From Chthonomonadaceae bacterium (GTDB lineage: Bacteria; Armatimonadota; Chthonomonadetes; Chthonomonadales; Chthonomonadaceae): a DNA stretch of 64,000 nucleotides. A model generated the notes under the pieces. It ran no database searches. It was not told the DNA's origin and saw only the letters and a program-made list of their open reading frames with translations. A program made the translations under genes and the position numbers. Shown here one piece after another: positions 5,355-62,176 of this stretch. Location of the stretch: NCBI GenBank assembly GCA_035650735.1, contig DASRGZ010000040.1, forward strand, positions 1-64,000, given 5' to 3'. Position 1 is the first letter of the stretch; each line of letters starts with the position of its first letter.

Positions 5355-5855
5355 CCTCACCCCAGCAGACCTCACCCCCGGCCCTTTGTGTAGGGTGTAG
5401 GGGATAGGGTGTAGGGGATAGGGTGTAGGGTCGCCCTCACCCCGGCCCCTCTCCTTGAGAAGGAGAGGGGAGAGGCCCCCACCCCCTGTCCCACTGCTAG
5501 GGTTGGCCCTACCATGGTTCGGGCCTCCGCCTTGCGACCCCCAAGAACAGGGGAGGGGAGAGGAGAAGCCAGTATTCTCTCTGCCCGCGTAGGTGTCGCC
5601 AGGCGGAGGGCTGTGGCAAGGCGGAGGCAGGGGCCCTAACCCTGCCGGCGGCCAGTATTCGCAACCCTTCCACCTTGATGTTGATGTCGCAAGGCGGAGG
5701 CAGAGGCCGTAACCCTGCCGACCCTTGCAGTCAGCGGGCCTGGCTAGGCGGAGATCGCCAGGCAGAGCCGCGAACCGTTGAGCGGCGTCCCTGGCAGTCG
5801 AGCGAGCGCAGCGCCGCCCCTGGCAGCGCCCCACAGCGGCAGGGTTTAGCCTGCC
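5355..5855. repeat. Composite intergenic repeat cluster (family C, heptamer tract, several 46-nt micro-elements, family D half)
   Basis: CCTCACCCCCGGCCC ends, (GTGTAGG/GGATAGG)6 at 5388-5429, micro-elements at 5493-5538, 5686-5731, nested 5740-5827. Confidence 0.85.
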
Positions 5856-5882
5856 GAGAGCATTGATGAAGGAAAACACCCG

Positions 5883-6761
5883 TTGTCCAGACCCAAGTTG
5901 CCCTTTGAGCCGCTGAATGCGCCGCGCGTGGCGCCGCAAAATCCCGGCCCGCCTACTCCCATCAATTGGTTTGAGCAGCTTGCGCCGCGCCTGCCGGAGC
6001 CGCCACCGCCGCCTGCGGCTTCCGTCTCGGAGGCCGGGCCGGCCGGCGTGCGCGCCGCTCTCTTTCGCGACGTGGAGGCGATTGCCGGCGAGGAGCGTCG
6101 GCGCCAGCGCATGAGCGAGCCGGAACCGGAAGACATCGCGCAGATGCGCGCCCAGGCGCAGGAGGAGGCGCAGGCACTGATCGCGCAGGCGCGCGCGCAG
6201 GTCCAGGACATTGAGGAGGAAGCGCGCCGGCAGGGCTATCAGGTGGGGTATGAGCAGGGCTATGTGGCAGGACAACAGGAGGCAACGCGCCTGGTCGTCC
6301 AGCGCGCCGATGACGAGCGCGCCGCCTACCGAGAAGATCTGGCCGCCTTTATCGCCCATATCGAGGCGGAGCGCCAGCGCGCCTGGGCCGAGATGGAGCC
6401 CCAGATCATCGGGCTGGTGTTCGATCTTGCCCGGCAGGTGATCAAGCAGGAGGTGGAGGCCAGCCGCACGGTGGCGCTTTCGGTGGTTGCCAACGCCCTG
6501 CGCCGCGCCGCCGATAGCACCACGCTGCGTATCCGCGTTCATGCCGACGATTTAGAGGCGGTGCGCGCCCATCGCGAAGACCTCCTGACGCTGGTGGACG
6601 GCATTCGCCATATCGAGATAATAGAAGACCGCCGGGTTGGGCCGGGCGGCGCGGTCGTGGAAACCGACGCGGGAACCATTGATGCCCGGATCGAGACGCA
6701 GCTAGACGAGGTTTCCGATGCGCTGGAGCGCATGATCGCGCACCGGGAAGGGCAGAGCTGA
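5883..6761 (+). CDS. fliH: Flagellar assembly protein FliH
   Basis: GxxxG repeats (GYQVGYEQGYVAG), IRVH.DD, GG.VVET..G.IDARIETQL. Confidence 0.9.
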   Translation: MSRPKLPFEPLNAPRVAPQNPGPPTPINWFEQLAPRLPEPPPPPAASVSEAGPAGVRAALFRDVEAIAGEERRRQRMSEPEPEDIAQMRAQAQEEAQALIAQARAQVQDIEEEARRQGYQVGYEQGYVAGQQEATRLVVQRADDERAAYREDLAAFIAHIEAERQRAWAEMEPQIIGLVFDLARQVIKQEVEASRTVALSVVANALRRAADSTTLRIRVHADDLEAVRAHREDLLTLVDGIRHIEIIEDRRVGPGGAVVETDAGTIDARIETQLDEVSDALERMIAHREGQS

Positions 6762-8140: not shown

Positions 8141-8147
8141 GAGCAAG

Positions 8148-8636
8148 ATGCGCCGATTTAAGTTTCGACTGGAAACCGTGCTGCGCCACCGCGAGACCAT
8201 CGAGAGCCTGCGAGAGCAGGAGTTTGCGACCGCGCAGGGGCATCTGGCCGCGATTGAGGCGCGCATCGCCGCGCTGCGCGAGGAGTTTAGCCGCACCGTG
8301 GCGGAGCGGCCCGGCAGCGCGCCGGGAGAGCGCTTCGAAGCGCAGGCCATCCTGGCGCGCGAGCGCTACCTGGAGACGCTGCTGGCGGCCATCGCCGCGC
8401 AGGAGCGCCGCGCCGACGCCCTGCGCGCGCAGGTTGAGGAGAAGCGGCAGGCGTTGGTGGCGGCGCGGCAGGCCCGCGAAGCCGTCTCGCGTCTGCGCGA
8501 TAAAGACCTGCTCGCCCATACGGCGCTCGGCCTGAAATTAGAGCAGGAAGCCCTGGATGAACTGGCGACCCTGCGCCATATCCGCGCTGCTCGCGCACAT
8601 TCCGATGCGCCCAATACGAAGGAGAAAGCCGCCTGA
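8148..8636 (+). CDS. fliJ: Flagellar export protein FliJ
   Basis: MRRFKFRLE.VL..R N-terminus, coiled coil, EQ..LDE; follows fliI. Confidence 0.85.
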   Translation: MRRFKFRLETVLRHRETIESLREQEFATAQGHLAAIEARIAALREEFSRTVAERPGSAPGERFEAQAILARERYLETLLAAIAAQERRADALRAQVEEKRQALVAARQAREAVSRLRDKDLLAHTALGLKLEQEALDELATLRHIRAARAHSDAPNTKEKAA

Positions 8637-9235: not shown

Positions 9236-9246
9236 CGCCCTCATGC

Positions 9247-9418
9247 CGGCAGGCTAAACCCTGCCGCTGTGGAGCTCTACTAGGGGCGGAACTGCGCACG
9301 CTCGTTCCTCCGCCTAGCGAGGCTAGCTGCCCGCCTACGCGGGCAAAATGCGCTTCTCGCCCACGCAGGTGGGCGACGGGCGCTTTGCGCCCCCCAGCGG
9401 CAGGGTTCAGCCTGCCGC
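9247..9418. repeat. Repeat family D (terminal inverted repeats GGCAGGCT.AACCCTGCCGCTG)
   Basis: Inverted ends; reverse-oriented expanded copy at 27021-27402, half copy at 5831-5855. Confidence 0.8.
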
Positions 9419-9458
9419 TTTAGAGCCGGGGGGTTAGGTAAAATACGGAGTGCAATCT

Positions 9459-10040: not shown

Positions 10041-10049
10041 AAAAAACAG

Positions 10050-10110
10050 AACACGGATAGGACGGATGCCACGGATCCAACGGATTGGCTCTATCCGTGT
10101 CATCCGTGTT
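10050..10110. repeat. Repeat family F (tandem CGGAT units facing ATCCG units)
   Basis: AACACGGAT...ACGGAT...ATCCGTGTCATCCGTGTT; same architecture as the CAGGAT/ATCCTG element at 48283-48432. Confidence 0.65.
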
Positions 10111-10117
10111 AATCTTT

Positions 10118-12064: not shown

Positions 12065-12099
12065 ACGTCCGCTCCTTCCTTATAGAGAAACCAATCAGA

Positions 12100-12510
12100 C
12101 TTGGCGCCCATCCGCGTCCGTTAGGATGCCTGGCCGTAGGCCATTCAATGCGTTCCCTAGCCGGGTACGGAAAGAACCCGGCTAGAGGGCGGCTGCGCCG
12201 CCAACCGTCCTACCGGACGGAACCACCGGCCTATCGGCAGGTGGCTGCCTTCGTAGAGCAGGAAGAACCTGCCGCAACGGGGCGTCCGAAGGACGCTTGG
12301 CCGTTAGGCCCTAGAGCCGGGAGGTGAAAACCCCCGTCTAGAGGGCGGCTGCGCCGCCAGCCGACTGCAAGAGACAGCGCTACGCTTGTTCGCGCCTCTG
12401 CCTTGCGACTGCGGACGGAACAACCCGGCTTTGCAGGGTGTCCCTTGCAGTCGCTTGGCCGTTAGGCCCCCTAGCCGGGTACTTTCCGTGCCCGGCTAGG
12501 GAACGCACTG
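12100..12510. repeat. Repeat family E cluster (TTGGCCGTTAGGCC / CCCGGCTAGAGGGCGGCT) with a micro-element at 12364-12409
   Basis: Several tandem/inverted units; related copies at 19844-19945 and 29990-30465. Confidence 0.8.
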
Positions 12511-12570
12511 ACCTTGAATTGGCGTGTCTACCCTGGAAATATCGGGCCGATCAATAGCGAGTTGCGCAGA

Positions 12571-14310: not shown

Positions 14311-14339
14311 AGCTAGGTTACTAAGTGCAGGAATTACCC

Positions 14340-17892: not shown

Positions 17893-18102
17893 GGCTGTGC
17901 CCGGCCCTAAAGGACCGGGCTGCGGACGGCAAGCCCGCTCAAGCGGGCTAAGAGAGGTGGATTAGTCCCCTTCAGGGGCTACCAGGAGGGAGAGCCCCCT
18001 TCAGGGGGCTTGCCCACTGCAAGGGTCGGCCCTGCAATGGTTCGGCCCTCCGCCTTGCGACACAGTCCACCCCTTTAGGGGTGGCTGCCACCAATTACCG
18101 TA
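17893..18102. repeat. Repeat family A copy carrying a 46-nt micro-element (18016-18061)
   Basis: Aligns end to end with 2431-2600 apart from the insertion. Confidence 0.8.
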
Positions 18103-27020: not shown

Positions 27021-27402
27021 CGGCAGGCTCAACCCTGCCGCTGTGGGGCGCAAAGCGCCCGTCGCCCACCTGCGTGGGCGAGACTCTCTGTCTGCGTAGG
27101 CAGGCCGCAGGCCTCGCCAGGCGGAGGGCTGTCGCTAGGTGTGGCTAGGTGGAGCCGGAGGCCGTAACTCCGGCGACCCCAGCAGTGGGCCGAACCGTTG
27201 TCGGCCCGACCCCGGCAGTCCATTACTGGGCTGACCCGAGCGATCAGCGGACGGCTTGATAAAAAATGTATTCTGTCCGCGCAGGTGTCGCAAGGCGGAG
27301 GGCCGAATTATTGCAGGCCCGACCCTGGCAGTCAGCATGACCTCTGCCCACCTACGTGGGCAGCGGGCCGCAGGCCCCACAGCGGCAGGGTTTAGCCTGC
27401 CG
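27021..27402. repeat. Family D element expanded by nested micro-elements
   Basis: D inverted ends enclosing a triple nest 27113-27245 and a single copy 27287-27332. Confidence 0.8.
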
Positions 27403-29989: not shown

Positions 29990-30465
29990 CGGGCACTGAA
30001 AGTACCCGGCTCTAGGGCCTTCGGCCAAGCGACTGCAAGGGACGGCGCTACGCTTGCTCGCGCCTTTGCCTTGCGACTGGCGGACGCGCCTGTCCCGCAG
30101 GGTTTTCCATCCGAAGGACGGTCGGCGGGGCAGCCGCCCTCTAGACGGGTATTTTCCATGCCCGGCACGGATCGGAGGTTTTCAACCCCCGGCTCTAGGG
30201 CCTACGGCCAAGCGACTGCAAGGGACGGCGCTACGCTTGCTCGCGCCTCTGCCTTGCGACTAGCGGACGCCCTGCCAAGCCAGGTGTTCCGTCCGATAGT
30301 CGCAAGGCAGAGGCGCGAGTGTCGCCAGGCGGAGATCGCCAGGCAGAGCCGCGAACCGTTGAGCGGCGTCCCTGGCAGTCGAGCGTGCGTAGTTCCGACC
30401 CTTGCAGTCGTAGCGCCGTCCCTTGCAGTCGGTTGGCGGCGTAGCCGCCCTACAGACGGGTAATT
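29990..30465. repeat. Family E cluster with micro-elements (30032-30077, 30215-30260, triple nest 30299-30429)
   Basis: Direct and inverted units visible; shares sequence with 12100-12510 and 5740-5827. Confidence 0.85.
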
Positions 30466-30720: not shown

Positions 30721-33498
30721 ATGTCGGTTCCTCCATGGTCTGCTTTAAGCGCGCAACAGTGGCTTTCCGCGTTCGCCGATCCGCCGCCTGCGTTCGGCCC
30801 GCTGGCGCTCTGGCTCTGGAACGCGGCCATGGATCGTGAGCTTATTACCCGCCAGCTCCAGATGCTGCGCGAGCAAGGGCTCTACTCCGTCCTGCTACGC
30901 GCCGGGAAGGGGCTGCGCCTTCCGTTTGGCTCGGCGGAATGGCACCAGCGCGTCGCGTTTGCCATCTCCGAGGCCGCGCGGCTGGGGATGGCGGTCTGGC
31001 TGCATATGGACGGCCCCGGGAGCGCTGGCGCGACGCTGGCGGCCCCCGAAACGCAGGCAATGGAGTCTGACGAGGAGCGCCTGCAGGGGCAGGAATTGAT
31101 CCGGGCGGAGATGGCTGTATCACGGGCGGCGGATTGGGCCCAAACCTTCACCGAGGCGGCATGGCCTGCGGAGACGCCGGTCGCCCTGCTTCTGGCGCGT
31201 CCCGACGGCTCCGACGTCCGCGACCTGACCGCCTTCCTGCCCGCGCCGCAGAAGGCGCCGTCCCTGCCGGTCGAAGATACGGCGGAGGGATGGCGGCTGA
31301 TCGCCTTTTACCGGCGCCCACGCCCTGCCGAGGAGGCGGGCGCTTTGCCCCTGGATTTTCTCTCGCCGCAGGCAGCCGACGTCTATCTGCGCACGCGCTT
31401 TGCTCCTTACGCCTCGCTGCTTCAGACTCCCACAGGCGAGGCGCTGCGCGGCTTTGTCGTCGGAACGCCACACCTGTTTGTGCCCGTCGCCGTGCCTTCC
31501 CCTGCCGACACCGGGGCTGTCACGGCAGCGGGCGCGATCCCCTGGACGGCGGATTTCCCGCAGCAATTCGCCCGACGCAAAGGCTACGACCTGCACACGC
31601 GCCTGCCGGCTCTATGGGAGGATATGCGGGACGCGCCGCAGGTACGCGGCGACTACTATGAGGCGCTCTCCGAGCTGATGGCGGAACGCTTCTACGCGCC
31701 GCTGCGGCGGTGGTGCGCGGATCAGGGCCGGCCTCTAGCCACATTGGCACCCCTGCCGGATACGCTCGCCGGCCAGACATTGCTCTGCGGCCATCCGCTC
31801 ACGTTCCTGCGGGCGCTGGATGTCTCCGGCTATGCTGGCGCTCCCAACGCACAGACGGCAAGCGCCTCGGCGTTTCCTCTTCCTCCTTCCTGCACTCCCA
31901 GCACGCAGGCTGCAAGCGCTTCTGTACCTCTGCCTGGCGGAACGGAAATGACGGCGGCACTGGCCGTTGCCGCTGCCGGCAGCCGCCCCAGCCTCGAGCG
32001 GGGAGCTTTTAGCCTGGTTGGCGTCGAAGCGGGCTGGGGACAGGCCCTGCGTGACCTGAAGGCGCAGGCGGAGCATTGCCTGGTCTCCGGCGCCAACCGC
32101 GTGATCCTGCCTATTTGCCATGCCGCCGCAGAGGGGGAAAGGCGGCGGGGGGAGTCCTCCTTTCCCCTTTTCCAGAACCCCTGCTGGCCGCTATTCGCCG
32201 CCTTTGCCGGGCAGCAGCGCCGCCTGGCCTATGCGCTGGCGCAGGGAACGCGGCGGGCGGAGATCGGCCTGTACTATCCCCTGCGCGCTGCCTGGGCGGC
32301 GCTGCCGCCCGGACAGCTTGCCTCCCTAGCTCCGGATCGGCTCGCCAGGCAAGGCGAGGCGCTATCTCGCACGCAAGATATTTTCCAGCAGGCGTACATG
32401 CTGCTGCGCGCCAATCAGTGGGAAGTGGCGCTGCTCGACGATCACGCGCTTCTGGAGGCCGAGGTCACCGAGGGCGCGCTGCGCCTGGATGGGCAGACGC
32501 TGCGCGTGATCGTGCTGCCCGATGTGCGATCCCTATCGCTGGCGGTGGCGCGGCGACTGCGCGCCTTTGTCGAATCGGGCGGGCTGGTAGCCACCGTCGG
32601 CTCCGTGCCGATGCGTGGCACGGTCGGTGGCGATGTGGTGGCCCAATCGCTGCTCGCCTCTCTGTTTGCCGACGGCGTGCCCGATCTCTACGGCAACCGG
32701 CTGCGATCCCAGGGGTCCGGCTGGGTAGCGCGCATTCCGGCGGGGATGGGGCCGCTGCGCGCCCTCCTGGCCGAGCGCGTTCCGGCGCGAGTGCGTCTGA
32801 CGCATCGCGATCCGGGCATCCGCCACACGCATCGGGCCGGCCCGGATTTCGACCTGTTCTTTCTAGCCTGCCTTCCCGGCGAGCGGCGCGGCACCGTTCA
32901 GGCCACCTTCCTCGCCAACGGCGTTCCGCTCCGGCTTGACCCTGAGACCGGCCTGGCGACACGCCTGATCCCCCTCGAAAGCGCGCCCGAGCGGCGCACG
33001 CTGCCGATAGACCTCTCCTCCGGCTCGGCCCTGATCGCCTTCGTGGGAGAGGGATTGACCGGCGGCGCGACCCTGGCGGAACAGAGCGTCCCGCTGGGCG
33101 CCTGGACCATCGGGCACGGGTGGGCGGTGACGCTGGCGGGCACGCTGCTGCAAACGGACCTGCGTCCCTGGGCCGAATTAGGCCAGCCCTTCTTTACGGG
33201 CCGGGCGGAGTACAACGTGCGCCTCTATGTGCCCAGCCGCCAGGAAGTCCCCTATGACCTCCTGCTACTGGACCTGGGCGACGTGCGCGAGTGGGCGCAG
33301 GTCTGGATCAACGGCGTGCGCGTCGGAGAACGCCTCTGGCCGCCCTACGTCCTGGACATCACCCGCTACGTCGGCGCCGGCGTCAACGAGCTGCAAGTCA
33401 TCGTGGGCAACACCCCGGCCAACGCACTTCTGCACGAGGAGCGCGTCTCCGGCCTGCTCGGGCCGGTAACCCTGCGCGCCCTGCAAATACCGCGTTAA
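30721..33498 (+). CDS. Glycoside hydrolase GH106/GH2-like protein (catalytic residues look degenerate)
   Basis: F.DPP..F.P...W.WN, PWT.DF...F..RKGYDL...LP.L, LDLG.V...A.V.ING..VG....PY..DIT. Confidence 0.7.
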   Translation: MSVPPWSALSAQQWLSAFADPPPAFGPLALWLWNAAMDRELITRQLQMLREQGLYSVLLRAGKGLRLPFGSAEWHQRVAFAISEAARLGMAVWLHMDGPGSAGATLAAPETQAMESDEERLQGQELIRAEMAVSRAADWAQTFTEAAWPAETPVALLLARPDGSDVRDLTAFLPAPQKAPSLPVEDTAEGWRLIAFYRRPRPAEEAGALPLDFLSPQAADVYLRTRFAPYASLLQTPTGEALRGFVVGTPHLFVPVAVPSPADTGAVTAAGAIPWTADFPQQFARRKGYDLHTRLPALWEDMRDAPQVRGDYYEALSELMAERFYAPLRRWCADQGRPLATLAPLPDTLAGQTLLCGHPLTFLRALDVSGYAGAPNAQTASASAFPLPPSCTPSTQAASASVPLPGGTEMTAALAVAAAGSRPSLERGAFSLVGVEAGWGQALRDLKAQAEHCLVSGANRVILPICHAAAEGERRRGESSFPLFQNPCWPLFAAFAGQQRRLAYALAQGTRRAEIGLYYPLRAAWAALPPGQLASLAPDRLARQGEALSRTQDIFQQAYMLLRANQWEVALLDDHALLEAEVTEGALRLDGQTLRVIVLPDVRSLSLAVARRLRAFVESGGLVATVGSVPMRGTVGGDVVAQSLLASLFADGVPDLYGNRLRSQGSGWVARIPAGMGPLRALLAERVPARVRLTHRDPGIRHTHRAGPDFDLFFLACLPGERRGTVQATFLANGVPLRLDPETGLATRLIPLESAPERRTLPIDLSSGSALIAFVGEGLTGGATLAEQSVPLGAWTIGHGWAVTLAGTLLQTDLRPWAELGQPFFTGRAEYNVRLYVPSRQEVPYDLLLLDLGDVREWAQVWINGVRVGERLWPPYVLDITRYVGAGVNELQVIVGNTPANALLHEERVSGLLGPVTLRALQIPR

Positions 33499-42782: not shown

Positions 42783-44258
42783 TTACAGGATGGCGCGCAC
42801 GAATTTTTGGGACTCTTTATCGTACGTATGGAACGGGTTCTTGAGGTCTAGCTGGCGATTGCGCTCGATGTAGACGGCGTCCCAATCGATCACGTAGCGC
42901 GTGCCCGGCCTGGCGATCAGTTGGGAAACGATCTGGCCGCGTCCCCAGGCGCGCGTGTTCTCCGGCGGGGTCGTGATCGCCTCCTCAACCTTCTCATCCG
43001 TGACCAGACGGCGCATGGCTCCGGCCTGCTCCAACCCGGAATGCAGCCCGACTTCCGGGTTGACATTGTGGTATTCCAGGTCCAGGCTCTGCAAAATGTC
43101 GTCCTGCCAGGAGACGCCGTTCTCGTCAATATACTGCTGGTAGAGAACGCGCTTGGCCGCCCAGTCCAGGCGGTCGGCGGTGGAGAGCGGGTCGCGCTCC
43201 AGGTCGTCGAGGATGCTCTCCCACTCCGTCAGCACCATGTCCGTCTGCGCGTCACGGCGGTGCAGATAGCGTTTGGCGGCGTCCAGGTAGCGGCGCTGTA
43301 GTTCCACCGCGGGAATAACCTTGCCGTTGCGCATCCGCACCGGCCATTTTAAGGTCGGGTCGCGGGAAACCGAGCGCAGCGTCTCCAGCGGGTCGGCCAG
43401 CTCCACATCCGGGGGAACGACGCCCTCCTCGATCAGGTCCAGCACCAGGCTCGTCGTGCCGACCTTGAGCATACAGGCGTACTCGCTCATGTTGCTCTCA
43501 CCAAAGAGGATATGCAGGCGGTGGAGGTTACTGTAGGAGTAGTAGGAGTCCCACTTCGGGTTGATGATGGCCCGGTTGAAGCGCACGCGCGAGGAGATGG
43601 TCTTGACGATGTGATCGGCGCGCTGGGAGAGCTGAAAGTCTACCGTTGGATCGATCTCGACGCCGTAGAAGTTGGACACCCAGACATAGTCCACCTCGTG
43701 CTCGCCCAGCGTCATGATATTGTTCTTGCTGCTGGGCCGGGTCAGGCGGTGGCCGCCTACGCGCCCGATGCCGACGAATATCTGGCGAGTGACCAGGAAG
43801 GGCAGCAGGTAGGAGAGCGCGTCGGTGAAGAAGCGGTCCTCGATCTGGACGAGATAATTTTCATGGCAGCCGAAGGTGTGCCCGCCGAAGTGATCAATGC
43901 TGTTATTATGGAAGCTGACGGCATCATCCAGTTGCAGCTCGGACAGGAGGTAGGCCAGCAGGGCCCGGCCCGCCTTATCATGGCGCACCAGGTCCAGCAG
44001 GTCGCAGCACTCGGCGGTGGCGTACTCCTCGTGGCTGCCGACGGCATCAATATAGAGCCGCCCGCCGTTGCGCAGGAAGCCGCCGGCGCGGGCTGGCTCG
44101 AAGGCGTAATCGCGGGCGTGCAGGTCAATCACGCCCAGCTTCTTATCGTAAAAGGCATAATCCTTGACCTGCTCGACAATCTCCTCCGGCGTCCCGACTG
44201 CGGGATCACGCACCATGCAGCCAAACTCTGTCTCGATGCCAAAGATGCGTCTGTCCAT
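42783..44258 (-). CDS. pafA: Pup/UBact-protein ligase PafA
   Basis: RIFGIETEFG, FL.NGGRLY.D..GSH.EYAT.EC, FGCHENY, SQRAD, RLH...GE.NMSE. Confidence 0.9.
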   Translation of the reverse strand: MDRRIFGIETEFGCMVRDPAVGTPEEIVEQVKDYAFYDKKLGVIDLHARDYAFEPARAGGFLRNGGRLYIDAVGSHEEYATAECCDLLDLVRHDKAGRALLAYLLSELQLDDAVSFHNNSIDHFGGHTFGCHENYLVQIEDRFFTDALSYLLPFLVTRQIFVGIGRVGGHRLTRPSSKNNIMTLGEHEVDYVWVSNFYGVEIDPTVDFQLSQRADHIVKTISSRVRFNRAIINPKWDSYYSYSNLHRLHILFGESNMSEYACMLKVGTTSLVLDLIEEGVVPPDVELADPLETLRSVSRDPTLKWPVRMRNGKVIPAVELQRRYLDAAKRYLHRRDAQTDMVLTEWESILDDLERDPLSTADRLDWAAKRVLYQQYIDENGVSWQDDILQSLDLEYHNVNPEVGLHSGLEQAGAMRRLVTDEKVEEAITTPPENTRAWGRGQIVSQLIARPGTRYVIDWDAVYIERNRQLDLKNPFHTYDKESQKFVRAIL

Positions 44259-44287
44259 ACTTGCTATGCCTTTGTTTCCTGGTCGGA

Positions 44288-44458
44288 CCTAATCCCCAGC
44301 CCCTCATGTAGGGTGTAGGGTGTAGGGTGTAGGGTGTAGGGGCGCCCTCACCCCCTACCCCCTCTCCCGGCGCTGCGGCAGAGGGGGAACGGAGAAGCCG
44401 GGTCCCCCCTTCCCTGCCGCGTTAGCGGCGGATTAGGGAAGGGGGACGGGAGGTTAGG
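44288..44458. repeat. Family C repeat with a five-unit (GTGTAGG)n heptamer tract
   Basis: CCCTCACCCC ends, CCCTCTCC..GAGGGG hairpins; heptamer tract 44306-44340. Confidence 0.75.
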
Positions 44459-44465
44459 TAACATT

Positions 44466-45260
44466 CTAGCGGTAGTCGCGGATGAGCGGCTCCAGGTCGG
44501 CGGGCGAGAGCAGCCGGAAGCGGCTCTCCCGGTTAGCGCGCCGCTCCAGCAAGCCGACCTCCACCGTGCCCGTCTTGAGCTCGTCGCGCAGGAACACGGC
44601 ATCGGCCTCCGCCTCGTCAATATCGCGGAAGGGATTTAATTCCTCTTCCTCCTCCCGCTGGCCGCTGATCTGGCGCCGCAGGGCCTCACGCGCGCCCACC
44701 GACCACGCTGATAGCGCCTTCTGAATGGCTTCCTGGCGTGTCCAGGTCGGACTCGGCTCGCCAATGCGCTCCAGCATCCGGTCCTCCGCGGCCTGCGTCC
44801 CGGCGATCGCCGCCGCGCCGCTATACTCGCGGAACTCGCCATCGTAGTTGAGCGTGAAGAACGTATCCATGCCCGGCGTGCGGCCCAGTTCCGCAAACAG
44901 CGCCCGAATGACGAACGGCACGGTAAATTGATCCCCAAACGCCTTCTTGAGCGCCGGACTGATGGCGAAGCCTACCAATCGGTGCACGGAGACGTCATCC
45001 GGGCTGCGCTCGAACCCCTCCTGGTGGGCGATCTGGATGGAACTCAGCCGCACGGTCTCGATATCCGACTGGTTGCCGATGGCTGAGAACATCTGGCGGT
45101 CGTATATCTCGTAGACCTTGCGCTGGCTGCGGCGCACCGTCAGGAGCAGCAGGCCGCTGTCATAGGTCAGCCCGACGACGGGGCTGCCCTCGCGCAGGTG
45201 CTCTTCGATATACTCCTTACGCTGCGCGATAGCCTCATTAAAATCAAAGGGTGTGTACAT
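44466..45260 (-). CDS. prcA: 20S proteasome alpha subunit
   Basis: KVYEIYDR..FSAIG...D.E..R; position between prcB and pafA. Confidence 0.85.
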   Translation of the reverse strand: MYTPFDFNEAIAQRKEYIEEHLREGSPVVGLTYDSGLLLLTVRRSQRKVYEIYDRQMFSAIGNQSDIETVRLSSIQIAHQEGFERSPDDVSVHRLVGFAISPALKKAFGDQFTVPFVIRALFAELGRTPGMDTFFTLNYDGEFREYSGAAAIAGTQAAEDRMLERIGEPSPTWTRQEAIQKALSAWSVGAREALRRQISGQREEEEELNPFRDIDEAEADAVFLRDELKTGTVEVGLLERRANRESRFRLLSPADLEPLIRDYR

Positions 45261-45275
45261 GCAGTGTGCTCACTT

Positions 45276-46109
45276 CTAGCGCGGACGCGGCGCGATGCGC
45301 TCTCCGGCCGATCGATCTATCTCGGCGACCATTGCGTGCAGTTCCTCTTCCGGCACGTCCTCGATGCCCTCTGCCGTGATCGTCTTGGCAAGCGGCAGGA
45401 CTTTAGCCCAGCCACCTGTTGCTGCGTCGAGGTCGGCGGCGATGTCGAGCAGATAGAGGGCTTCCTTGAGCGCCTCCTCGCGGGTCATCTCATGGAACGG
45501 CTTCTTGGTCTTGACGATGTAATCGAAGACGCCGCGTATCTGCAAAGAGCCGCTGCCCGCTGCGCCGAACTCGGTGCTCTCGAACCGGGCGCCCATGCCG
45601 TCGTAGAAGAAGATGCGCCCCTCGTTGCTCTCGCGGTCGAAGGTCGTCATAATGGGAATAAACCCGCCGATGCCCTGCAGCGCCTCCGGGATGCCCGCGC
45701 GGACGACTTTCGCCAGTTCCGCCAGCTTCCCATCCAGGCTCATCGGCTGCAAGTAAGTGCGCTCGAAAAACTTGAAGGTCGTCCGCAGGTAGCGCACCAC
45801 CTCCATCGCCCGCGCAAACGAGCCGGAGATCGCCAGCAGCGTATAGTCATCAATCGGCAGGACCTTCTCCGCCTTGTCGTACATTACGGCGAAGTTGGCG
45901 GTCGCGCGCCGGTCGCCCACGTTGAGGACGCCCTGATTGAATTTGACGGCGATGACCGTCGTGCCATGTGTATCCACCACGCCCGCCCCCGCGCCGACGC
46001 CCGGCCCGATATGACTATCGTTCGGGCGTGCAGGCGAGGCGGCGACAGGATGTGTGATCGGATGCCCGCTCTTTTCGAGCAGGCTCCAGAAATCGCCCGC
46101 TAATTCCAT
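45276..46109 (-). CDS. prcB: 20S proteasome beta subunit with propeptide
   Basis: THG|TTVIA Ntn cleavage site, GDRRAT, GSGS, D.D..TGG. Confidence 0.92.
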   Translation of the reverse strand: MELAGDFWSLLEKSGHPITHPVAASPARPNDSHIGPGVGAGAGVVDTHGTTVIAVKFNQGVLNVGDRRATANFAVMYDKAEKVLPIDDYTLLAISGSFARAMEVVRYLRTTFKFFERTYLQPMSLDGKLAELAKVVRAGIPEALQGIGGFIPIMTTFDRESNEGRIFFYDGMGARFESTEFGAAGSGSLQIRGVFDYIVKTKKPFHEMTREEALKEALYLLDIAADLDAATGGWAKVLPLAKTITAEGIEDVPEEELHAMVAEIDRSAGERIAPRPR

Positions 46110-46115
46110 GAGTTA

Positions 46116-46427
46116 CCTAACCCCCCGGCCCCCTTCCCTGAGAGGGAAGGGGGTGACCCGGCCTTGACAGTTGTATGTGTTGGTTGCAGTCCACTCCCAA
46201 TCCGTAGAATGGGAGGAACAAGCATAGATACCGGCTCGCCTGTTTCCCTAACCCCCATTGCGATGGGAACGCCTCTCCCAGCAGAAACGCACGACTTACC
46301 GTCACCCCCTTCCCTCCCAGGGTCGCCAGGCGGAGGGCTGTGGCAAGGCGGAGGCAGGGGCCCTAACCCTGCCGACCCTGGCAGTCCATTGCAGCCCCGA
46401 CCCTGGCAGTGGGGGCCGGGGGGTTAG
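46116..46427. repeat. Family C inverted-repeat element containing a double-nested micro-element (46322-46410)
   Basis: CCTAACCCCCCGGCCCC ... GGGGCCGGGGGGTTAGG inverted ends. Confidence 0.8.
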
Positions 46428-46439
46428 GTGCAACAGCGC

Positions 46440-46634
46440 TTACTGACCGCTGCGCTGGCGATAGCGGCGAGCGGCATCCGGATCCACGCGCTTCATGCGC
46501 TTGAGCAAGTCGCTGGTATCGGGACGCTTCACATCCGGCTTGTTCGGGCCGCCATCATCGCCGCCTTTGCGCAGCGGATCGGTCGGCAAGGTCGGCATCT
46601 GGCGTCGCTCTTCGCCACGGAATATCCTCGTCAT
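46440..46634 (-). CDS. ubact: Ubiquitin-like protein UBact (Pup analogue)
   Basis: 64 aa; LLKRMKRVDP..A.RYRQRSGQ C-terminus; between dop and prcB; AAGGAG RBS. Confidence 0.9.
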   Translation of the reverse strand: MTRIFRGEERRQMPTLPTDPLRKGGDDGGPNKPDVKRPDTSDLLKRMKRVDPDAARRYRQRSGQ

Positions 46635-46747
46635 GGGTGGTTATCTCCTTGTCTTAGCGCTCAGTCGCGCGGATGCAAGTGCAGTGCTCTACGAAATCAG
46701 CTTGGATCATCTATACGCAAGATTGCCATCCGTTCGTGCTATATCGG

Positions 46748-48253
46748 CTAGACCACTTCGTCAGAATGGCGAATCACGGCAACGAAATCCTCCAGGGTTT
46801 CGGCGGCGGCGAGTTCCTCGTTCAAAACGCTGACGTTCTCCTCGACGAGCGGGTTCATATCGAAGAGCAGGTCTTCGCCGTTGTGCTGAAAGGCGATCCC
46901 GTTCCAGCCGATACTGCGCACCGCCTGGCCGAACCGCTCCACGAACAGCCCCCGGATGAAGGCGCGGGTATCGGCGGGCGGACAGGACATGGCCGCCTGA
47001 ATGCGCGCATCCGTCACCAGACGCCGCATCTCTCCCGCCTGTTCCAGCCCATAGTAGAGCCCCTGTTCGGGATCAATGTTATGATAGGCCAGGTCAAGGC
47101 TCTGCATGTAGGGATCGTTCCAGCTCAGGCCCTCTTCGGCGCGGAAGGCATCCAGCAGCTTGAACTTGGCGACCCAGTCTAGCCGGTCGGCCAGGCTGAG
47201 CGGATCGGTCTCCAGCGCCTCCAGCGTAGAGGCCCATTCCGCCAGCGTCCAGTCCGTCTCTTCGTCCCTGCCGCACAGGCGTTTTTCCGCCTCCTGTAGA
47301 TAGAGACGTTGGATCTCCAGCGCGGTGACGGGGCTTCCACCCTGCCGCTCCACCCTCTGTTTCAGCGTGATGTCCCGGGAAACCTGCTTGACGGCGCGCA
47401 CCGGGTCCAGCAATTTGATGGGCGACGACCACCCTTCTTCCAGCAGCGATAGCACCAGGCTGGTCGTGCCGACTTTGAGGGCGGTAGCGTACTCGCTCAT
47501 GTTGGCATCGCCGCAGATGACGTGCAGACGGCGATAGTGGCGCGGCGTGGCGTGGGGCTCATCCCGTGTGTTGACCAGCGGGCGGTTATGCAGCGTGTCC
47601 ACGCTGGCCTCGACCGAGAAGAAGTCGGCGCGCTGGGAAAGCTGAAAGACAGGAACGGCGCTGTCGTTTTCGACGTCCGACTTGCCCGCCCCGGCGTAGA
47701 TCTGGCGCGTGGCGAAGAAGGGCAGCAGCGCCTGAATGAGGACGTCCGTGGGCACATCGCGGCGCACCAGGTAGCCTTCGTGCGTGCCGTAGCTGGCGCC
47801 GTGAAAATCGGTGTTGTTTTTGTAGATGGTGACGGCCTGGCCGCGCTGCTGGGCCCGGCGCTGGGCCGCCGCGAAGACGATACGCTCTCCGGCTTTGTCG
47901 TGGGCAACCAGGTCGCGTAGGCTGCGGCATTCCGGCGTGGCGTATTCGGGATGGCCGTGATCGTTATAGAGCCTGGCCCCGTTCGCCAGAACCCGGTCGC
48001 TGCGCTCCTCCTCGCGACTCATGGGAGGCGTGCCGGGCGCATCGAACTGCGCATCATCGGGGTTGGTGGAGAGATGCTCCACCGTGAACCCGCGCATGTC
48101 ACGCCGAGGATCTTCGCCCCGGTAGTTCCAGCCGCTGACCGCCGGCCCGGCATGGCTGCGGACGACCGCGATGCTCTCGTTAATCCAGTCGCCGGCGCTC
48201 AGCCCCTCAACCACGATGCCATATTCCGTCTCGATCCCGAATAGCCTGTGCAT
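46748..48253 (-). CDS. dop: Deamidase/depupylase Dop (PafA2 family)
   Basis: GIETEYG, VL.NGARLY.DH.HPEY.TPEC, YKNNTD..G.SYG.HE.Y, RDEPHA, RRLHVI.GDAN. Confidence 0.9.
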   Translation of the reverse strand: MHRLFGIETEYGIVVEGLSAGDWINESIAVVRSHAGPAVSGWNYRGEDPRRDMRGFTVEHLSTNPDDAQFDAPGTPPMSREEERSDRVLANGARLYNDHGHPEYATPECRSLRDLVAHDKAGERIVFAAAQRRAQQRGQAVTIYKNNTDFHGASYGTHEGYLVRRDVPTDVLIQALLPFFATRQIYAGAGKSDVENDSAVPVFQLSQRADFFSVEASVDTLHNRPLVNTRDEPHATPRHYRRLHVICGDANMSEYATALKVGTTSLVLSLLEEGWSSPIKLLDPVRAVKQVSRDITLKQRVERQGGSPVTALEIQRLYLQEAEKRLCGRDEETDWTLAEWASTLEALETDPLSLADRLDWVAKFKLLDAFRAEEGLSWNDPYMQSLDLAYHNIDPEQGLYYGLEQAGEMRRLVTDARIQAAMSCPPADTRAFIRGLFVERFGQAVRSIGWNGIAFQHNGEDLLFDMNPLVEENVSVLNEELAAAETLEDFVAVIRHSDEVV

Positions 48254-48282
48254 TGTCGCTGCTGCTCATCTCCTTATTTTTC

Positions 48283-48432
48283 AACAGGATGAACAGGATT
48301 TCTCAGGATTTGCAGGATTAAGACCAAAGACTAAAGCCTTCCCGTCCACTAAGTTAAGAGATATAGGAACTTGGTTGGGTAGGTAGGTTTTAGAAATCCT
48401 GTTTAATCCTGCATAATCCTGTTCATCCTGTT
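48283..48432. repeat. Family F element (CAGGAT units / ATCCTG units)
   Basis: AACAGGATGAACAGGATT...AATCCTGTTCATCCTGTT inverted ends. Confidence 0.75.
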
Positions 48433-48439
48433 GAGGTCT

Positions 48440-50266
48440 TTAAATGATATTGCGGCGGGTGGCGTTTAGCTGCTTCTTGGCGCGAATAGGCTTGATGGTC
48501 GCCACGTTCTCCGGGTCGTAATCGAGCAGCTTCAGCCAATCTTCCTGCGAGTCGCCCTTCGGGAAGATCTCGTTCTCCTTGAACTCGACCCGGACCGCCT
48601 TTTGGAGATCGTCCAGCGAGATGCCTTCGTGCTCCGACTGCTTGAGAATGCTGCGCTTGATGGCAAAGTCCTTTGCACGCTCGGTCACCGACTTGATCAG
48701 GGCGCCGCTGATGAGGTCCTTCCAGTAGAGCGTCTCGGTGCTGCCGTTGCGCAGGAAGACCTCCAGGAACTCGGTTTCCTCGTCGCGTCGGAACGTGAAC
48801 TCGGTTATCAGATCGAGCAGCTCATCCATCGCGGCGGTACAGTCACCCTTATGCTCCCGGATCAGGTCCGGGTCAATCGGCACGTCGCTCAGATAGATTT
48901 TATAGATGTCGCGCGAGGCGCGGCGGTCGGGCCGTCCGACCTTCACCTTGCGGTCAATGCGCTCCGGGCGCAGGATGGCTGGGTCAATGTAATCGGGCCG
49001 ATTGGAGGTCAGCATCACGACCACGTTCTCTAGGTTGACCAGGCCGTCCATCTCCGCGCAGAACTGCGGCACAAGGGTATTAGAGATATTCAGCCAGCGC
49101 CCAGACGAGCGCGTGCGCAGGAGCGACTCGGCCTCATCAATGAAGATAAAGACCAGATGCCCTTCCTTTGACTTCTCCCGCGCCTGCGTGAAGATTTCGC
49201 GCACCATGCGCTCGCTCTCGCCCAGCCACATATTGAGGATTTTCGGGCCGTTGATGTACATGAAGTACTCTTTAACGTCCCGCCCGGTCTGGCTCCGGTA
49301 TTCTTGCGTGAGGTTGTAGGCGGTCGCCTTGCCGATGAGAGTCTTGCCGCAGCCGGGAGGGCCGAACAGCAGGATGCCTTTGAGCGGGCGCTTGCCAAAC
49401 CGTTCAAAGAGCTCGGGATAGAGCAGCGGCAGCTCAATGGCGTCCTTGATGACGCTGATGGCCTCCTCCTGCCCGCCGATCTTGCTCCAGGGCAGAACAG
49501 GAACCTCTTCCAGGTAGTAGTCGCGGGTCTCTTTCTCCGCGAAGTACTCCAGGGCCACCTTGAAATTGGGCTCCATGCGCACTTCCGCGCCGGTCTTGAG
49601 CGGCAAGTCCAGAAGAGGCTCGCCCCGGTAGACCACGCGCGACTGCATCCCCTGCGCGTCCATCGCCACGCGCAGCCGCCCATCTTCCAGTACCTCGCTT
49701 ATCTTAACGATGGGGCCGCCCTGCGCGAAGCCCAGGTCGCCGATGACCGCGAACGCCTCGTTCACCTTGACCTGCGTGCCGATCTTGAAATCGGGGTTCT
49801 CCAGCTTGGGGTCCACGTTGGCGATGTATTCCTGGTCGCCCAGGGCAATGCGCACGACCAGGCCGGGCTTTTCTTCGGATTCCGGCTCGGCGGGCTGACC
49901 GAGGCGGCGGCGCGGCTTGGGCTTTTCCTCGGTGGGCTCCAACATCCCCAGGAAGACGCCAATGCGGTTGGCGGGCGAGGTCAGCTTATTATAGGCCTCC
50001 TCAAACTCGGCGATGACTTTCTTGGCCTCTTCCATCATGGCCTCATCGGCCTGGACCTGCTCGCGCAAGGCCATCAGGTAGCTGAGGCGCACGTCGTTGC
50101 GCGGGGTCATGCGGATGATCTCATCCAGCAGCCAGAGGGCGCGCAGCTGCATGTCGGAGGAGGAAGCGGCCTGGTTATCGTCACCGAAGGCGCTGTCGTT
50201 ATAATCGTCGCGGTTGCCGCCGAAGTCCATGTCGTCGCGGCGGTCACGGTCACGGTCTCGTCGCAT
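48440..50266 (-). CDS. arc: Proteasome AAA+ ATPase ARC/Mpa
   Basis: Coiled coil + OB domains, GPPGCGKTLI.KA, FIDEAES, SNRPD.IDPAILRP.RID. Confidence 0.92.
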   Translation of the reverse strand: MRRDRDRDRRDDMDFGGNRDDYNDSAFGDDNQAASSSDMQLRALWLLDEIIRMTPRNDVRLSYLMALREQVQADEAMMEEAKKVIAEFEEAYNKLTSPANRIGVFLGMLEPTEEKPKPRRRLGQPAEPESEEKPGLVVRIALGDQEYIANVDPKLENPDFKIGTQVKVNEAFAVIGDLGFAQGGPIVKISEVLEDGRLRVAMDAQGMQSRVVYRGEPLLDLPLKTGAEVRMEPNFKVALEYFAEKETRDYYLEEVPVLPWSKIGGQEEAISVIKDAIELPLLYPELFERFGKRPLKGILLFGPPGCGKTLIGKATAYNLTQEYRSQTGRDVKEYFMYINGPKILNMWLGESERMVREIFTQAREKSKEGHLVFIFIDEAESLLRTRSSGRWLNISNTLVPQFCAEMDGLVNLENVVVMLTSNRPDYIDPAILRPERIDRKVKVGRPDRRASRDIYKIYLSDVPIDPDLIREHKGDCTAAMDELLDLITEFTFRRDEETEFLEVFLRNGSTETLYWKDLISGALIKSVTERAKDFAIKRSILKQSEHEGISLDDLQKAVRVEFKENEIFPKGDSQEDWLKLLDYDPENVATIKPIRAKKQLNATRRNII

Positions 50267-50614
50267 TCGCCTCTCCTTGTTATGTCCGGGAGCCCGAGGA
50301 CTTCCTGTAGACAAAGACATACTGGGCGCGCTTCGATGCGCACCCGGTCTCAGTATACCAAACTTTACGCGTGTTGGGAAGCGTAAGTTTCGCGCCTCCC
50401 AGTACGAATGTATACCTGTTCTGACGACAAGCGGCGGTATTTTTACACTTTCCTGGGTTGACCGCCCTTTCGCCCTGTGCTAAGATGAACCCAGGCTGGC
50501 AGAAAGAGCGGGCCTCAGACTGGCAGAAAGAATGGGTACGAGTAGGCTGCCCAGGCCAGCATAGGCGCAGCAATTGGGCTAGGATGTGCCCAGACTGGAA
50601 GCAAGAACCGGCTG

Positions 50615-53574: not shown

Positions 53575-53584
53575 ATGTGATGAT

Positions 53585-56548: not shown

Positions 56549-56588
56549 GCTTTCCTTCCTATTTCCCCTAAGGCCCACACCCCTCGTG

Positions 56589-60001: not shown

Positions 60002-60013
60002 ACTGTCCTCCTG

Positions 60014-62176
60014 TTATGGCCCCGTATCATCGCTATCGGGGGCCGCTTCGGTGCTGCCGCCCGAGGTCGGAGTCGGTAGCTGCGGTGGGGAGGTCCAGGA
60101 TGACCATCCCGGATAGCGCGGGACTTCCCGCCATTGCAGCACGCGCGGCCCGTTCTCCGTCAGCTCCGCCAGCGCCGAGACCGCATATACGCCTGGCTGA
60201 CCCGGCACGCGCACCTTGATATGCACCCTATAGACGGAAGATTTCGTGCAGAGATGCCCGATCACGGCTTCATACTGCTCGCGCGTGATGTTTTGCAACT
60301 GAAAGAGATCGCCCAGCGACTGAAACGCCTGCCCGCCCTGTCGGTAGCTCAGGATGGCGTCCAGCAGCGCGCGGTCCATGCCCGGCACCGTCGCCAGCAC
60401 TTCGGGCGGGGCGGTGTTGATGTTGACGACGTTTTCCCGGTAGGTTGTGTCCTCGGTGGTGATGCGGTCGGCGATATCGGCCATCACCGTCCGGGTAAAG
60501 CCCCGTACCTCCAGCAGGTCGGCGATGGTGCGGAACGCCTGGCTCTGCCCACCGCCGCTACTGCTGCTGCCCGGGCTATTGCCGCCGGGAGCGCCGCCGT
60601 TCCCGCCGGGGGTATTGCCGCCCGATCCCGGCCCACCGCTGCCCGCATTGTTGCCCGCCGGCGGGCTATTTCCGCCAGAATTGGGACCGCCGCCCAATCC
60701 TAGCTGCCGGGTGACGCCCCGGCGCGGTCGGCCCAGCAAGCCCCCGGACTCCATCTGTAGCCCCGGCCTGTTGCCGTTCCCGCCCAATCCCGGCCTACCG
60801 TTGCCCGGGACGTTACCAGGCGGCGGGCCGCTGGGCGCTCCATTGCCCTGGCTGGGAGGCGGCCCTCCACCGGGCTGGGGTTGGCCTCCGAAGCCGCCCG
60901 TACCGCCGTTGCGGTAGTCTATCAGGCGGCGGGCCAGCTGCGCGGGTAGCCCGAGCTTCTGCTGAAGATCCTGGGCGCTGGCGGTATTGATGTTGACGCG
61001 CGGCGAGCCGTCGGAGGCGACGTTGCGCTCGCGGGCGTAGGTCGTCAGCAACTCGGCCAGCGGGAACGTGCTGTTGGCGAAGATGTCGTCAAAATCGCTG
61101 TTTCCGCCCGACGGCGGCGGATTGTTAGGGTTCGGCGGGCCGTTCCCCGGCGGATTGGGCGGGGAGCCGGGTAGGCCGGGCTGATGAGGGCCGTTCGGCT
61201 GTGGGGCCTGCCGCGTGGTTCCATCCTCATAACCGCCCGGCATCGCGCCCCCGTTCGCCTGCGCCGCCTGGCCCGGCGCTGCCGATGTCGGGTTGCCGGA
61301 GGGAGCGTTATAGAGCAGCGCGGGCGTCATGCCCCGCACAAGCAGCAGTTCCTCCACCGTATCGAACGGCGCCCCTTTGGCGCTGTAGGGCGTGGGCAGC
61401 GATTGATAGTAATCCGACGCGCCGCCGCTGGCGGAGGATTGATCACTCGAATGGCGCCAATCCAGGATGGCGGTTATCAGGTCCTCCTGGTCACTCAGGG
61501 TCGGCAGACGCCTGAGCGTCGCCTCGTCCGCCGTATTCAGGTTGATCAGCCCGGCGGTATCTACGGCCTCGATCTTGACCCAGGCATCCCCGACCGGCAT
61601 CCAGCCGTTGGCGTCGGTATCCGCCACCGGGGGGATGACACCGTAGGTGGCGCCGTTGTTGCTGGTCTGCGCCAGGGCGCTCAGGGCGTAGTTGAGCGCG
61701 CCGCGCGCGGCATAGAAGCGCTCTACCTGCGCGCTCTCGCGGGCCGCCGCCCGTACCTCGCGCCGCGCCGAGGTCGCAAAAGTCACGGCCACCGCAGTCA
61801 AAATCAGCACGACGAAGACCACTGGCACGAGCGCCTGCCCTCGCCGTATCCCACCAGTGGCCCTGTTGTCACCATACTGCCGTGAAAACAGGCCCCCATC
61901 CCGTCCTGCGGCCACCCACTGCCAGGGTCGGCGCTCAACGGACTGCCAGGGGCGGGCCTGCAATGGACTGCCAGGGTCGGCAGGGTTACGGCCCCTGCCT
62001 CCGCCTTGCGACACCTTGCGACACGGCTCTGCCTTGCGACAGCCCGCCGCCTGGCTATCCCCAAGGACAGGGGAGGGGAGAGACCTCACCCCCGGCCCCT
62101 CTCCTTTAGAAGGAGAGGGGAGAGGCGTTCTCATGCGAGTGGATGAATACCTGTTTATGGAGCCTCTTGCGTGCAT
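60014..62176 (-). CDS. gspK: Minor pseudopilin GspK with HhH motifs (start uncertain; repeats lie in the N-terminal region)
   Basis: RRG|QALV.V hydrophobic helix, INLNTA, I.DWR, F.TVEELLLVRGM, VNINTA. Confidence 0.85.
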   Translation of the reverse strand: MHARGSINRYSSTRMRTPLPSPSKGEGPGVRSLPSPVLGDSQAAGCRKAEPCRKVSQGGGRGRNPADPGSPLQARPWQSVERRPWQWVAAGRDGGLFSRQYGDNRATGGIRRGQALVPVVFVVLILTAVAVTFATSARREVRAAARESAQVERFYAARGALNYALSALAQTSNNGATYGVIPPVADTDANGWMPVGDAWVKIEAVDTAGLINLNTADEATLRRLPTLSDQEDLITAILDWRHSSDQSSASGGASDYYQSLPTPYSAKGAPFDTVEELLLVRGMTPALLYNAPSGNPTSAAPGQAAQANGGAMPGGYEDGTTRQAPQPNGPHQPGLPGSPPNPPGNGPPNPNNPPPSGGNSDFDDIFANSTFPLAELLTTYARERNVASDGSPRVNINTASAQDLQQKLGLPAQLARRLIDYRNGGTGGFGGQPQPGGGPPPSQGNGAPSGPPPGNVPGNGRPGLGGNGNRPGLQMESGGLLGRPRRGVTRQLGLGGGPNSGGNSPPAGNNAGSGGPGSGGNTPGGNGGAPGGNSPGSSSSGGGQSQAFRTIADLLEVRGFTRTVMADIADRITTEDTTYRENVVNINTAPPEVLATVPGMDRALLDAILSYRQGGQAFQSLGDLFQLQNITREQYEAVIGHLCTKSSVYRVHIKVRVPGQPGVYAVSALAELTENGPRVLQWREVPRYPGWSSWTSPPQLPTPTSGGSTEAAPDSDDTGP
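61918..62122. repeat. Triple-nested micro-element within a family C repeat
   Basis: ACTGCCAGGG at 61918, 61942, 61967; CCTTGCGAC ending at 62012, 62022, 62040. Confidence 0.85.

Follow-up and report, generated by a model that had tools for sequence, protein, structure and literature searches.

A 45/46-nt structured repeat found in place of four target nucleotides in a Chthonomonadaceae genome

Results

Copies of the element in the 64-kb window

The stretch of DNA analysed here (the window) comprises 64,000 nt, positions 1 to 64,000 of contig DASRGZ010000040.1 from a Chthonomonadaceae bacterium (assembly GCA_035650735.1), and it contains copies of a non-coding element of 45 or 46 nt with the layout ACT-GCNAGG-G(T/A)C-(5-bp stem, 10-11-nt loop)-TCCG-CCTNGC-GAC. 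The genome of the window is a draft, 97.6% complete, and is called G000, while G001, G010 and G019 are other genomes of the family; C-numbers denote contigs of G000 and L-numbers the loci that were examined. A preliminary description of the window had listed nine copies with conserved ends, and all nine were located at their coordinates with those ends, apart from end variants in two of them: the copy at 12364 begins ACTGCAAGAG and that at 46340 ends GCCAC. A covariance model trained on 26 copies detected 13 full copies and two fragments in the window. One of the full copies (9276-9321, forward strand) was new, being intact, slightly diverged and absent from the first list, and it was found by the parse described below as well as by the model. 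No Rfam family matched in the window.

On the forward strand, intact 46-nt copies lie at 5493-5538, within a C-rich hairpin repeat such as is found next to DUF559 genes in related genomes; at 12364-12409, in a Y1-type repeat; at 18016-18061, in a repeat belonging to the family around the Y1 gene of L002; and at 30032-30077 and 30215-30260, both in repeats of the family around the Y1 gene of L001. On the reverse strand, an intact 46-nt copy at 5686-5731 is hosted by a Y1-type terminal repeat, of the family flanking the Y1 gene of L175, and another at 27287-27332 was identified by its ends and by the parse.

Copies also lie inside one another. An iterative parse, in which inner copies were collapsed stepwise, reproduced three of the nests that had been described, all on the reverse strand: two deep at 46322-46410 (46340-46385 at site 25 of the outer copy) and at 5740-5827 (a 45-nt copy, 5754-5798, at site 29 of the outer copy), and three deep at 30299-30429 (30335-30379 at site 29 of 30321-30408, itself at site 21 of the outer copy). 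For the reverse-strand nest at 27113-27245, two of the three proposed levels were parsed, with the inner copy 27141-27186 at site 33 of 27131-27219, whereas the third, outer level is degenerate and was seen by eye only. At 61918-62058 on the forward strand, the intact copy 61967-62012 does lie among stacked pieces, but in place of a clean three-deep nest the parse gave an unbalanced stack of two left halves, the intact copy and three right remainders, which are out of order relative to the left halves. The reverse-strand segment 5613-5685 consists of a truncated copy and approximately 35 nt of unrelated DNA fused between it and an intact copy; this composite is present 14 times in G000 and also occurs in G019 (L014).

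Copy number, nesting and structure

A fuzzy search of G000 that required both element ends at a spacing of 44-47 nt gave 522 matches compared with 9 in the reversed genome used as the control, and the copies are therefore not due to chance. The iterative parse found approximately 730 copies, of which 485 enclose no other copy, while 196 are at a depth of two, 46 at three and 3 at four. The fixed length reported for the window extends to the whole genome, with 545 copies of 46 nt and 185 of 45 nt. All 245 nested copies are oriented like their host copy. They enter 46-mers at positions 21, 25, 29 and 33 (21, 64, 41 and 55 cases, respectively) and 45-mers at positions 20, 24, 25 and 32 (2, 32, 4 and 26 cases). 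The intact copies represent 292 distinct sequences, 240 of them single copy, and many copies sit in one common composite context.

Covariation was measured in 26 copies hand-picked for diversity, 11 from the window and 15 from other loci. In these, 45 cells were changed on both sides compared with 10.4 ± 2.6 after shuffling (none of 500 shuffles reached 45), a control that favours structure, the fold having been derived from those same 26 sequences; with the partners slid, at most 13 double-change cells were obtained. The double changes fell in four of the five inner pairs and in one of the six outer pairs. Among the 292 distinct sequences, inner pairs 14-32 to 17-29 were paired at frequencies of 0.92, 0.93, 0.88 and 0.93, against expectations of 0.74, 0.54, 0.34 and 0.51. 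The inner stem is thus a conserved structure with free sequence. The earlier claim that both stems are kept by compensatory change applies to this inner 5-bp stem, but for the outer stem compensation is weak. Twelve folds gave z values from -4.0 to +0.4, and both strands fold alike. The motifs GCNAGG and CCTNGC, which make up the outer stem, both lie 3 nt inside the ends and have a nearly free middle base. Judging from the sequences, the outer stem appears to act more as a 6-bp subterminal inverted motif than as a compensating stem, and the motif seems to be conserved as sequence with a free middle base, as would be expected of a binding site or of a product of end shuffling.

Insertion replaces four nucleotides

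Since the parse presumes a 3-nt placeholder it cannot itself prove a length rule, and the rule of insertion was tested separately by comparing filled and empty alleles with a free gap. The empty alleles used are paralogous repeat copies in place of orthologous sites of sister strains, and flank contexts are not equivalent to independent insertion events. There were 514 distinct flank contexts in G000, of which 287 had no empty allele and 227 had one. In 183 of the 227, the empty allele has exactly 4 nt where the filled allele has 47, with no target-site duplication, as had been proposed for the window; the other empty alleles have 0-3 nt (13 contexts) or 5-7 nt (31 contexts).

When the anchors were moved outwards, the expected gap was present in 114 of 155 contexts, and in these 114 the flanking positions L-3 to L-1 and R+2 to R+4 match in 96-101, which is the background of paralogous hosts. 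Target base 1 is altered in 112 of the 114 and base 2 is always C after insertion, so that both bases are lost and the AC of the element stands in their place. Target base 3 is unchanged in 96 of the 114 (C in 90). The outcome at base 4 depends on the base, with G becoming A in 58 of 61 cases, C being kept in 30 of 31 and T being kept in 14 of 21, the remaining seven T becoming C. As dinucleotides, CG gave CA (61) and TG gave CA (7), CC gave TC (33) or CC (18), CT gave CT (27) or CC (11), and GG remained GG (8). Each insertion amounts to a net gain of 43 nt and a net loss of 3 target nt. The earlier formula of 46 nt plus one extra A or T for 4 nt was right in its length, but the final one or two bases come in part from the target: a C or T of the target is retained as the extra base, whereas a target G is replaced by A.

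The targets vary (TTCG, TCCG, TCCT, TTCC, CTCC, ACGG and others), and precise sites were found in at least 15 classes of repeat site, counted by eye, in one orientation relative to the pyrimidine-rich target strand. In G010, which represents a second genus, five empty TTCG alleles beside Y1 genes could be compared with seven filled alleles, 47 nt ending in CA, although these seven may stem from one event. We consider it very likely that the precise insertion element is real. A search for excision footprints gave no recurring allele between the host anchors.

Two further ideas were rejected. Passive CpG decay as the origin of the change from G to A is not consistent with the stability of the other CG positions of the element or with junction words that are not depleted. 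The loop of one subtype is complementary to the flank, yet the effect expected of a loop acting as its own guide was at most 0.1 nt over 341 pairs.

Host repeats and unbalanced stacks

Among the 458 stacks with full flanks, 334 had repeated DNA on both sides, 107 on one side and 17 on neither, compared with both sides at 194 of 2000 intergenic control points; most of the 17 resemble diverged repeat copies. In keeping with the earlier statement, copies reside almost exclusively in other repeats or in the element itself. Several of the host families are inverted repeats around IS200-like Y1 genes with the motif Y---Q--HH, represented by L001 and L002 in G000 and by L168, L170 and L175 in relatives.

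Small DUF559 genes (L272-L301) are often flanked by C-rich hairpin repeats, some of them in inverted pairs; the C-rich hairpin repeat was present at 12 of the 30 DUF559 loci of the family, a count with no background control. In G000, DUF559 was found only as a domain within a 1561-aa frame. By analogy, the DUF559 genes and C-rich repeats could possibly be a further nuclease-repeat system, like repetitive extragenic palindromic (REP) sequences with RAYT or SRMs with Ssn.

Extra left halves or right remainders make 168 of the 485 stacks unbalanced, and in most classifiable unbalanced stacks the host families stay matched on left and right. Independent use of the ends or slippage between tandem ends can each account for them. 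The site near 62013 in the window, which had been read as an insertion with a larger loss, is one of these 168, and end shuffling or slippage fits it better than insertion.

Some stacks of G000 contain unique DNA of 31-40 nt, mostly between 30-35-nt duplications of element sequence (C28:62651-62747, C59:66548-66648, C120:27850-27959, C38 ~32120-32230, C171:5679-5866 and C142:4415-4531). A CRISPR array on C93 has repeats of approximately 29-30 nt and spacers mostly of 36-38 nt, sizes akin to those of the in-stack stretches. Ectopic integration by Cas1-Cas2 is a possible origin of the unique stretches, and the variable duplication length also fits template-switching repair. Two short isolated CRISPR-like arrays (C109:6231-6353 and C224:43546-43680) have repeats that differ from those of the C93 array.

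Distribution

The covariance model found the element in 4 of 42 genomes of the family, scoring 148 of 148 candidates in G000, nine copies in G001, seven in G010 and a single doubtful one in G019. The G019 copy is 98.6% identical over 145 nt to a G000 composite and lies at a contig end, and it may be contamination. None of 400 further genomes sampled from the phylum, a set without G001, G010 and G019, gave a match, nor did viral contigs and phages, and plasmids gave short chance matches only. Among the matches listed in the genome collection, the named records (at least three) were all Chthonomonadaceae, one of them being identical with a G001 locus. Of 129 metagenome loci, 17 had sequence other than that of G000, most of these with further stem variants between the same ends, while the remainder were 100% or nearly identical to G000. 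These near-identical loci argue against an assembly artefact, but may share source reads with G000. Contigs from four metagenome runs break at the repeats.

Search for the moving enzyme

The preliminary description had proposed an HUH, tyrosine or IS110-like enzyme as the mover, but none of these three classes could be tied to the element, and family-by-family searches of G000, short of a whole-proteome scan, tied no other enzyme to it. G000 gave three Y1 matches, namely a gene whose HUH motif is altered, a gene divided between two frames and a fragment, and from their sequences these genes look dead. The Y1 genes of L001 (C166:80092-80433) and L002 (C166:12640-12873), both bordered by abundant host repeats, thus look inactive, whereas dozens of copies of their repeat families remain. 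No IS110 gene was detected in G000 or G001; IS110 is present in 10 of the 42 family genomes, where its ends are unlike those of the element, and its presence does not follow that of the element. In the IS110 locus L211, a covariance-model match with the same ends falls within coding sequence and was taken as chance. IS110 elements of other family members (L205, L209 and L211) directly adjoin Y1-type and C-rich host repeats.

G000 had nine tyrosine recombinase matches and four serine recombinase matches. Of the nine, seven were scanned and none passed the TIGR02249 cut-off for integron integrases; the one stand-alone tyrosine recombinase that was tested occurs in 13 of 42 genomes, was not found in G001 and does not follow the element. 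Serine recombinases were present in all five genomes checked. There were no reverse transcriptase candidates in G000, and the search for Y2/IS91 gave no match, its controls also being without a match. The only GIY-YIG match of G000 is a 618-aa frame, of a size present in nearly all family genomes, and is presumably UvrC-like. Topoisomerase IB was found in G000, G001 and the non-carrier G016 but was not found in G010.

Genes of G000 flanked on both sides by copies included none that was transposase-like by eye in the first 110 residues, no orphan left or right ends bounding a gene were recognised among the matches listed, and 40 frames beside copies in other genomes together with nine recombinase-locus frames had no enzyme in common. 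In L052 (positions 1-1340), from another organism, an IS630-like element appears by eye to be inserted into CTAG at the left end of a nested copy, and the IS630-like gene was rejected as the mover since it is itself inserted into the element's CTAG.

Discussion

A single-strand exchange as the proposed mechanism

Single-strand cut-and-swap by a trans-acting hairpin reader is the best explanation that we can offer, and we put its chance of being correct at about even. The element would be a non-autonomous unit that is moved in trans as a folded single strand. The enzyme would read the hairpin of the element together with a nearby target hairpin and would cut the target twice, 2-4 nt apart, whereupon the short piece would be swapped for the element, in a cassette exchange as opposed to a staggered insertion. 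At the right end, a 2-nt overlap brought from the donor would be accepted only if a standard or purine-pyrimidine wobble pair could form, and such a wobble-tolerant overlap would convert CG to CA and CT to CC and leave CC and GG as they are. The left and right ends may be usable independently, in which case composites would move too. The preliminary description had likewise proposed a tiny, non-autonomous unit that is recognised by its structure and moved in trans; the fixed length, inner stem, single orientation and absence of duplication are all in keeping with this proposal, while the mover itself has to be postulated.

The likeliest mover would be an HUH transposase (Y1, IS200-like, with the motif Y---Q--HH) that is now dead or unassembled in G000. 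This class is favoured because the hosts are Y1 repeats and because TnpA-REP cuts single strands near a bound hairpin. According to the available text of PMC8266576, the hairpin bound by TnpA-REP is single-stranded and cleavage takes place on its 5' or its 3' side, mostly nearby, and the motif Y---Q--HH is given as the mark of subclass 1.2 in that of PMC6006769. We nevertheless regard the assignment to Y1 in particular as tentative. A "replacement" mode of transposition by an enzyme family not yet linked to mobility is put forward with the same reserve; here one small hairpin would be read as both ends, the piece between the cuts would be discarded and the G would be rewritten to A. In that case, the same machinery might also act on many other tiny elements that nest in themselves.

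Several observations weigh against a Y1 enzyme or against the exchange as a whole. Y1 relatives occur in 28 of the 42 family genomes, mostly without the element, and no copy flanks any Y1 gene, the search of 100 enzyme loci having given one chance match. As a host class, the C-rich hairpin repeat of the DUF559 type is larger than any other, Y1 repeats included. Y1 enzymes are described as making guide-chosen cuts and joining at a shared dinucleotide, and the available text of PMC8266576 describes no target loss. Neither is a guide evident in the element, where mutual information between element and flank positions does not exceed 0.14 apart from the junction pair, and where matches between the centre and the flank barely exceed those of shuffles, such that no guide-target rule emerged. 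With regard to structure, the outer pair 6-41 is paired in only 0.46 of the 292 sequences (0.28 expected), copies mismatched at this pair often lose the outer stem, and several copies do not fold it. The change from G to A has exceptions in 4 of 393 G000 contexts and in three G001 copies that are followed by G, and the empty alleles are paralogous repeat copies.

Alternative explanations

Under any model, later amplification and conversion have probably inflated the copy number. In the extreme, there may have been only a few dozen old insertions, with most copies, chimeric ends and stacks arising from the spread of host repeats, gene conversion and slippage. This would account for the many copies that share one composite context, for the shuffling of pair 6-41 and for host Y1 genes that look dead, and the 168 unbalanced stacks could be explained by deletion between direct repeats. 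It leaves unexplained why the same precise replacement recurs in a second genus and across at least 15 site classes that are unrelated to one another, and the 292 distinct intact sequences, 240 of them single copy, also weigh against few events. We see this history as possible though doubtful in its strong form, and it would qualify the enzymatic model rather than take its place.

An IS110 origin was also considered. The element would be a miniature derivative of a bridge-RNA-guided IS110, moving as a small circle with its recombinase encoded elsewhere and with an unusual donor-target register in which bases are lost. IS110 members enter REPs one way round, with no duplication and with modular left and right boxes (available text of PMC12288879); ISPpu10 also requires a target stem-loop (bioRxiv 10.64898/2026.03.19.712850, in the part available); and IS621 can release a single-stranded circle and insert on a half match (10.64898/2026.08.31.748434, likewise). 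The IS110 genes of the family, moreover, adjoin the same host repeats (L205, L209 and L211). On the other hand, IS110 recombination as presented in the accessible part of PMC11208160 is scarless and takes place about a core that is repeated at both ends, whereas the element has no shared core and bases are lost. Its targets are also too varied for one IS110 guide, G000 and G001 lack IS110, and the IS110 loci of the family are without such ends. We therefore regard this origin as unlikely.

It is also improbable that the element moves as a double strand, with a tyrosine, serine or DDE-type enzyme binding GCNAGG/CCTNGC. Either the 3-nt end pieces would then serve as mismatched coupling or overlap sequences, or the target would undergo a reversed-stagger attack, with loss of 2-4 target bases. 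A nearly free middle base in both motifs, 3 nt inside the ends, is what a protein-binding site would show; the nine tyrosine and four serine recombinase matches of G000 would provide candidates; and transposons that use coupling sequences, Tn916 and CTnDOT among them, tolerate overlaps with mismatches. Conservative recombination, however, would cause no net loss and would retain a single overlap derived from the target, which is not what the element shows, and the covariation of the inner stem speaks for a folded single strand. The tyrosine recombinase tested does not follow the element and none of those scanned reaches the integron-integrase cut-off.

Finally, the element might be RNA-based and enter hairpins that carry a nick by target-primed reverse transcription, with primer trimming and template overlap causing the loss and the change from G to A. 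This would fit the strict orientation, the structured core and the target-site loss known for target-primed retroelements, but it is very unlikely given fixed lengths with no truncation series, no reverse transcriptase in G000 and no Rfam family in the window.

Comparison with known systems

Insertion by bacterial elements is either clean or accompanied by duplication of the target. None of the standard reactions that we checked accounts for a constant target loss combined with a base-specific rewrite at one of the junctions, and a literature search that covered few subscription papers found no element with a fixed target replacement. The closest parallel may be the small dispersed repeats SDR1-8 of Nostocaceae, which Elhai et al. 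in 2008 reportedly described as being 21-27 nt long, conserved in fold over sequence and inserted cleanly without duplication. The element resembles the SDRs so described in being tiny, non-coding and enzyme-less, in keeping fold more than sequence and in entering other repeats without duplication. It differs from them in its length of 45/46 nt, in belonging to another phylum and in the fixed loss and rewriting of target bases, although a similar target loss could be reported in the original SDR description or its supplements. SDR5 is said by a citing paper to insert into HIP1 repeats (PMC5861425, in its available part).

With REP/REPIN-RAYT systems, as set out in the accessible portions of PMC8266576, PMC3116915, PMC3733652 and PMC6006769, the element shares a short imperfect hairpin, hundreds of extragenic copies and strand asymmetry, and its hosts are repeats of the REP type or of the type that flanks Y1 genes as terminal inverted repeats (TIRYT, subclass 1.2). 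Unlike REPs and REPINs, it has no GTAG/CGTC tag at the foot of the stem, the reverse strand beginning with CGTC in 4 of 393 contexts and usually with TGTC; it also forms no inverted doublets and has never been found next to a Y1 gene, and it differs further by its nesting in itself and by the loss of target bases. A miniature of the IS200/IS605 type would have a guide-predicted fixed target and element-flank covariation, neither of which is seen here, and bases are lost. REP targets, orientation, lack of duplication and modular ends are shared with REP-targeting IS110 members (ISPpu9/MITEPpu9, ISPpu10 and IS621; PMC12288879 and PMC11208160, available text), from which the element differs, as far as those texts go, in having no shared core, in not being scarless, in its far smaller size and apparently, in the draft assemblies, in lacking a linked recombinase or bridge RNA. 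The GIY-YIG nuclease Ssn, with its SRM/NTS repeats, offers a parallel in that it reads a hairpin repeat on single-stranded DNA in trans, but in the available text of PMC11893778 it is shown to cut and not to insert.

A classical DDE-type miniature inverted-repeat transposable element would differ in that the element has a 6-bp subterminal motif only and loss in place of duplication. Unlike integron attC sites, the copies are inside repeats and not at cassette ends, with none of the seven tyrosine recombinases scanned passing the integron-integrase cut-off and no Rfam match, and derivation from a retroelement or group II intron is at odds with the lack of a reverse transcriptase in G000. We classify the element among the very small mobile repeats that resemble SDRs and REPs, distinguished by an unusual junction rule.

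With approximately 730 copies, at least 15 site classes and nests up to four deep, G000 documents one such reaction in rich detail. Identification of the enzyme would bear on how very small repeats such as SDRs and CGTC-type REPs are mobilised, and a small editing tool might follow from it that puts cargo in the place of a few bases and makes no double-strand break. Should the insertions prove to be old and few, the element would still be a well-documented new micro-element family with an odd footprint.

Other features of the genome

Several other abundant non-coding repeat families are present in G000, with lengths of 67-109 nt and in some cases terminal inverted repeats, the commonest 22-mer of each occurring in 18-102 copies. 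The hexamer GTCGAC is strongly avoided in G000 (observed/expected 0.14), which suggests a restriction system. Within the window, positions 42786-50320 carry a Pup-proteasome gene set (PafA-like, 20S alpha and beta, Dop-like and ARC-type ATPase), most of the matches being below curated cut-offs; the set occurs in a flagellated bacterium with PEP-CTERM proteins.

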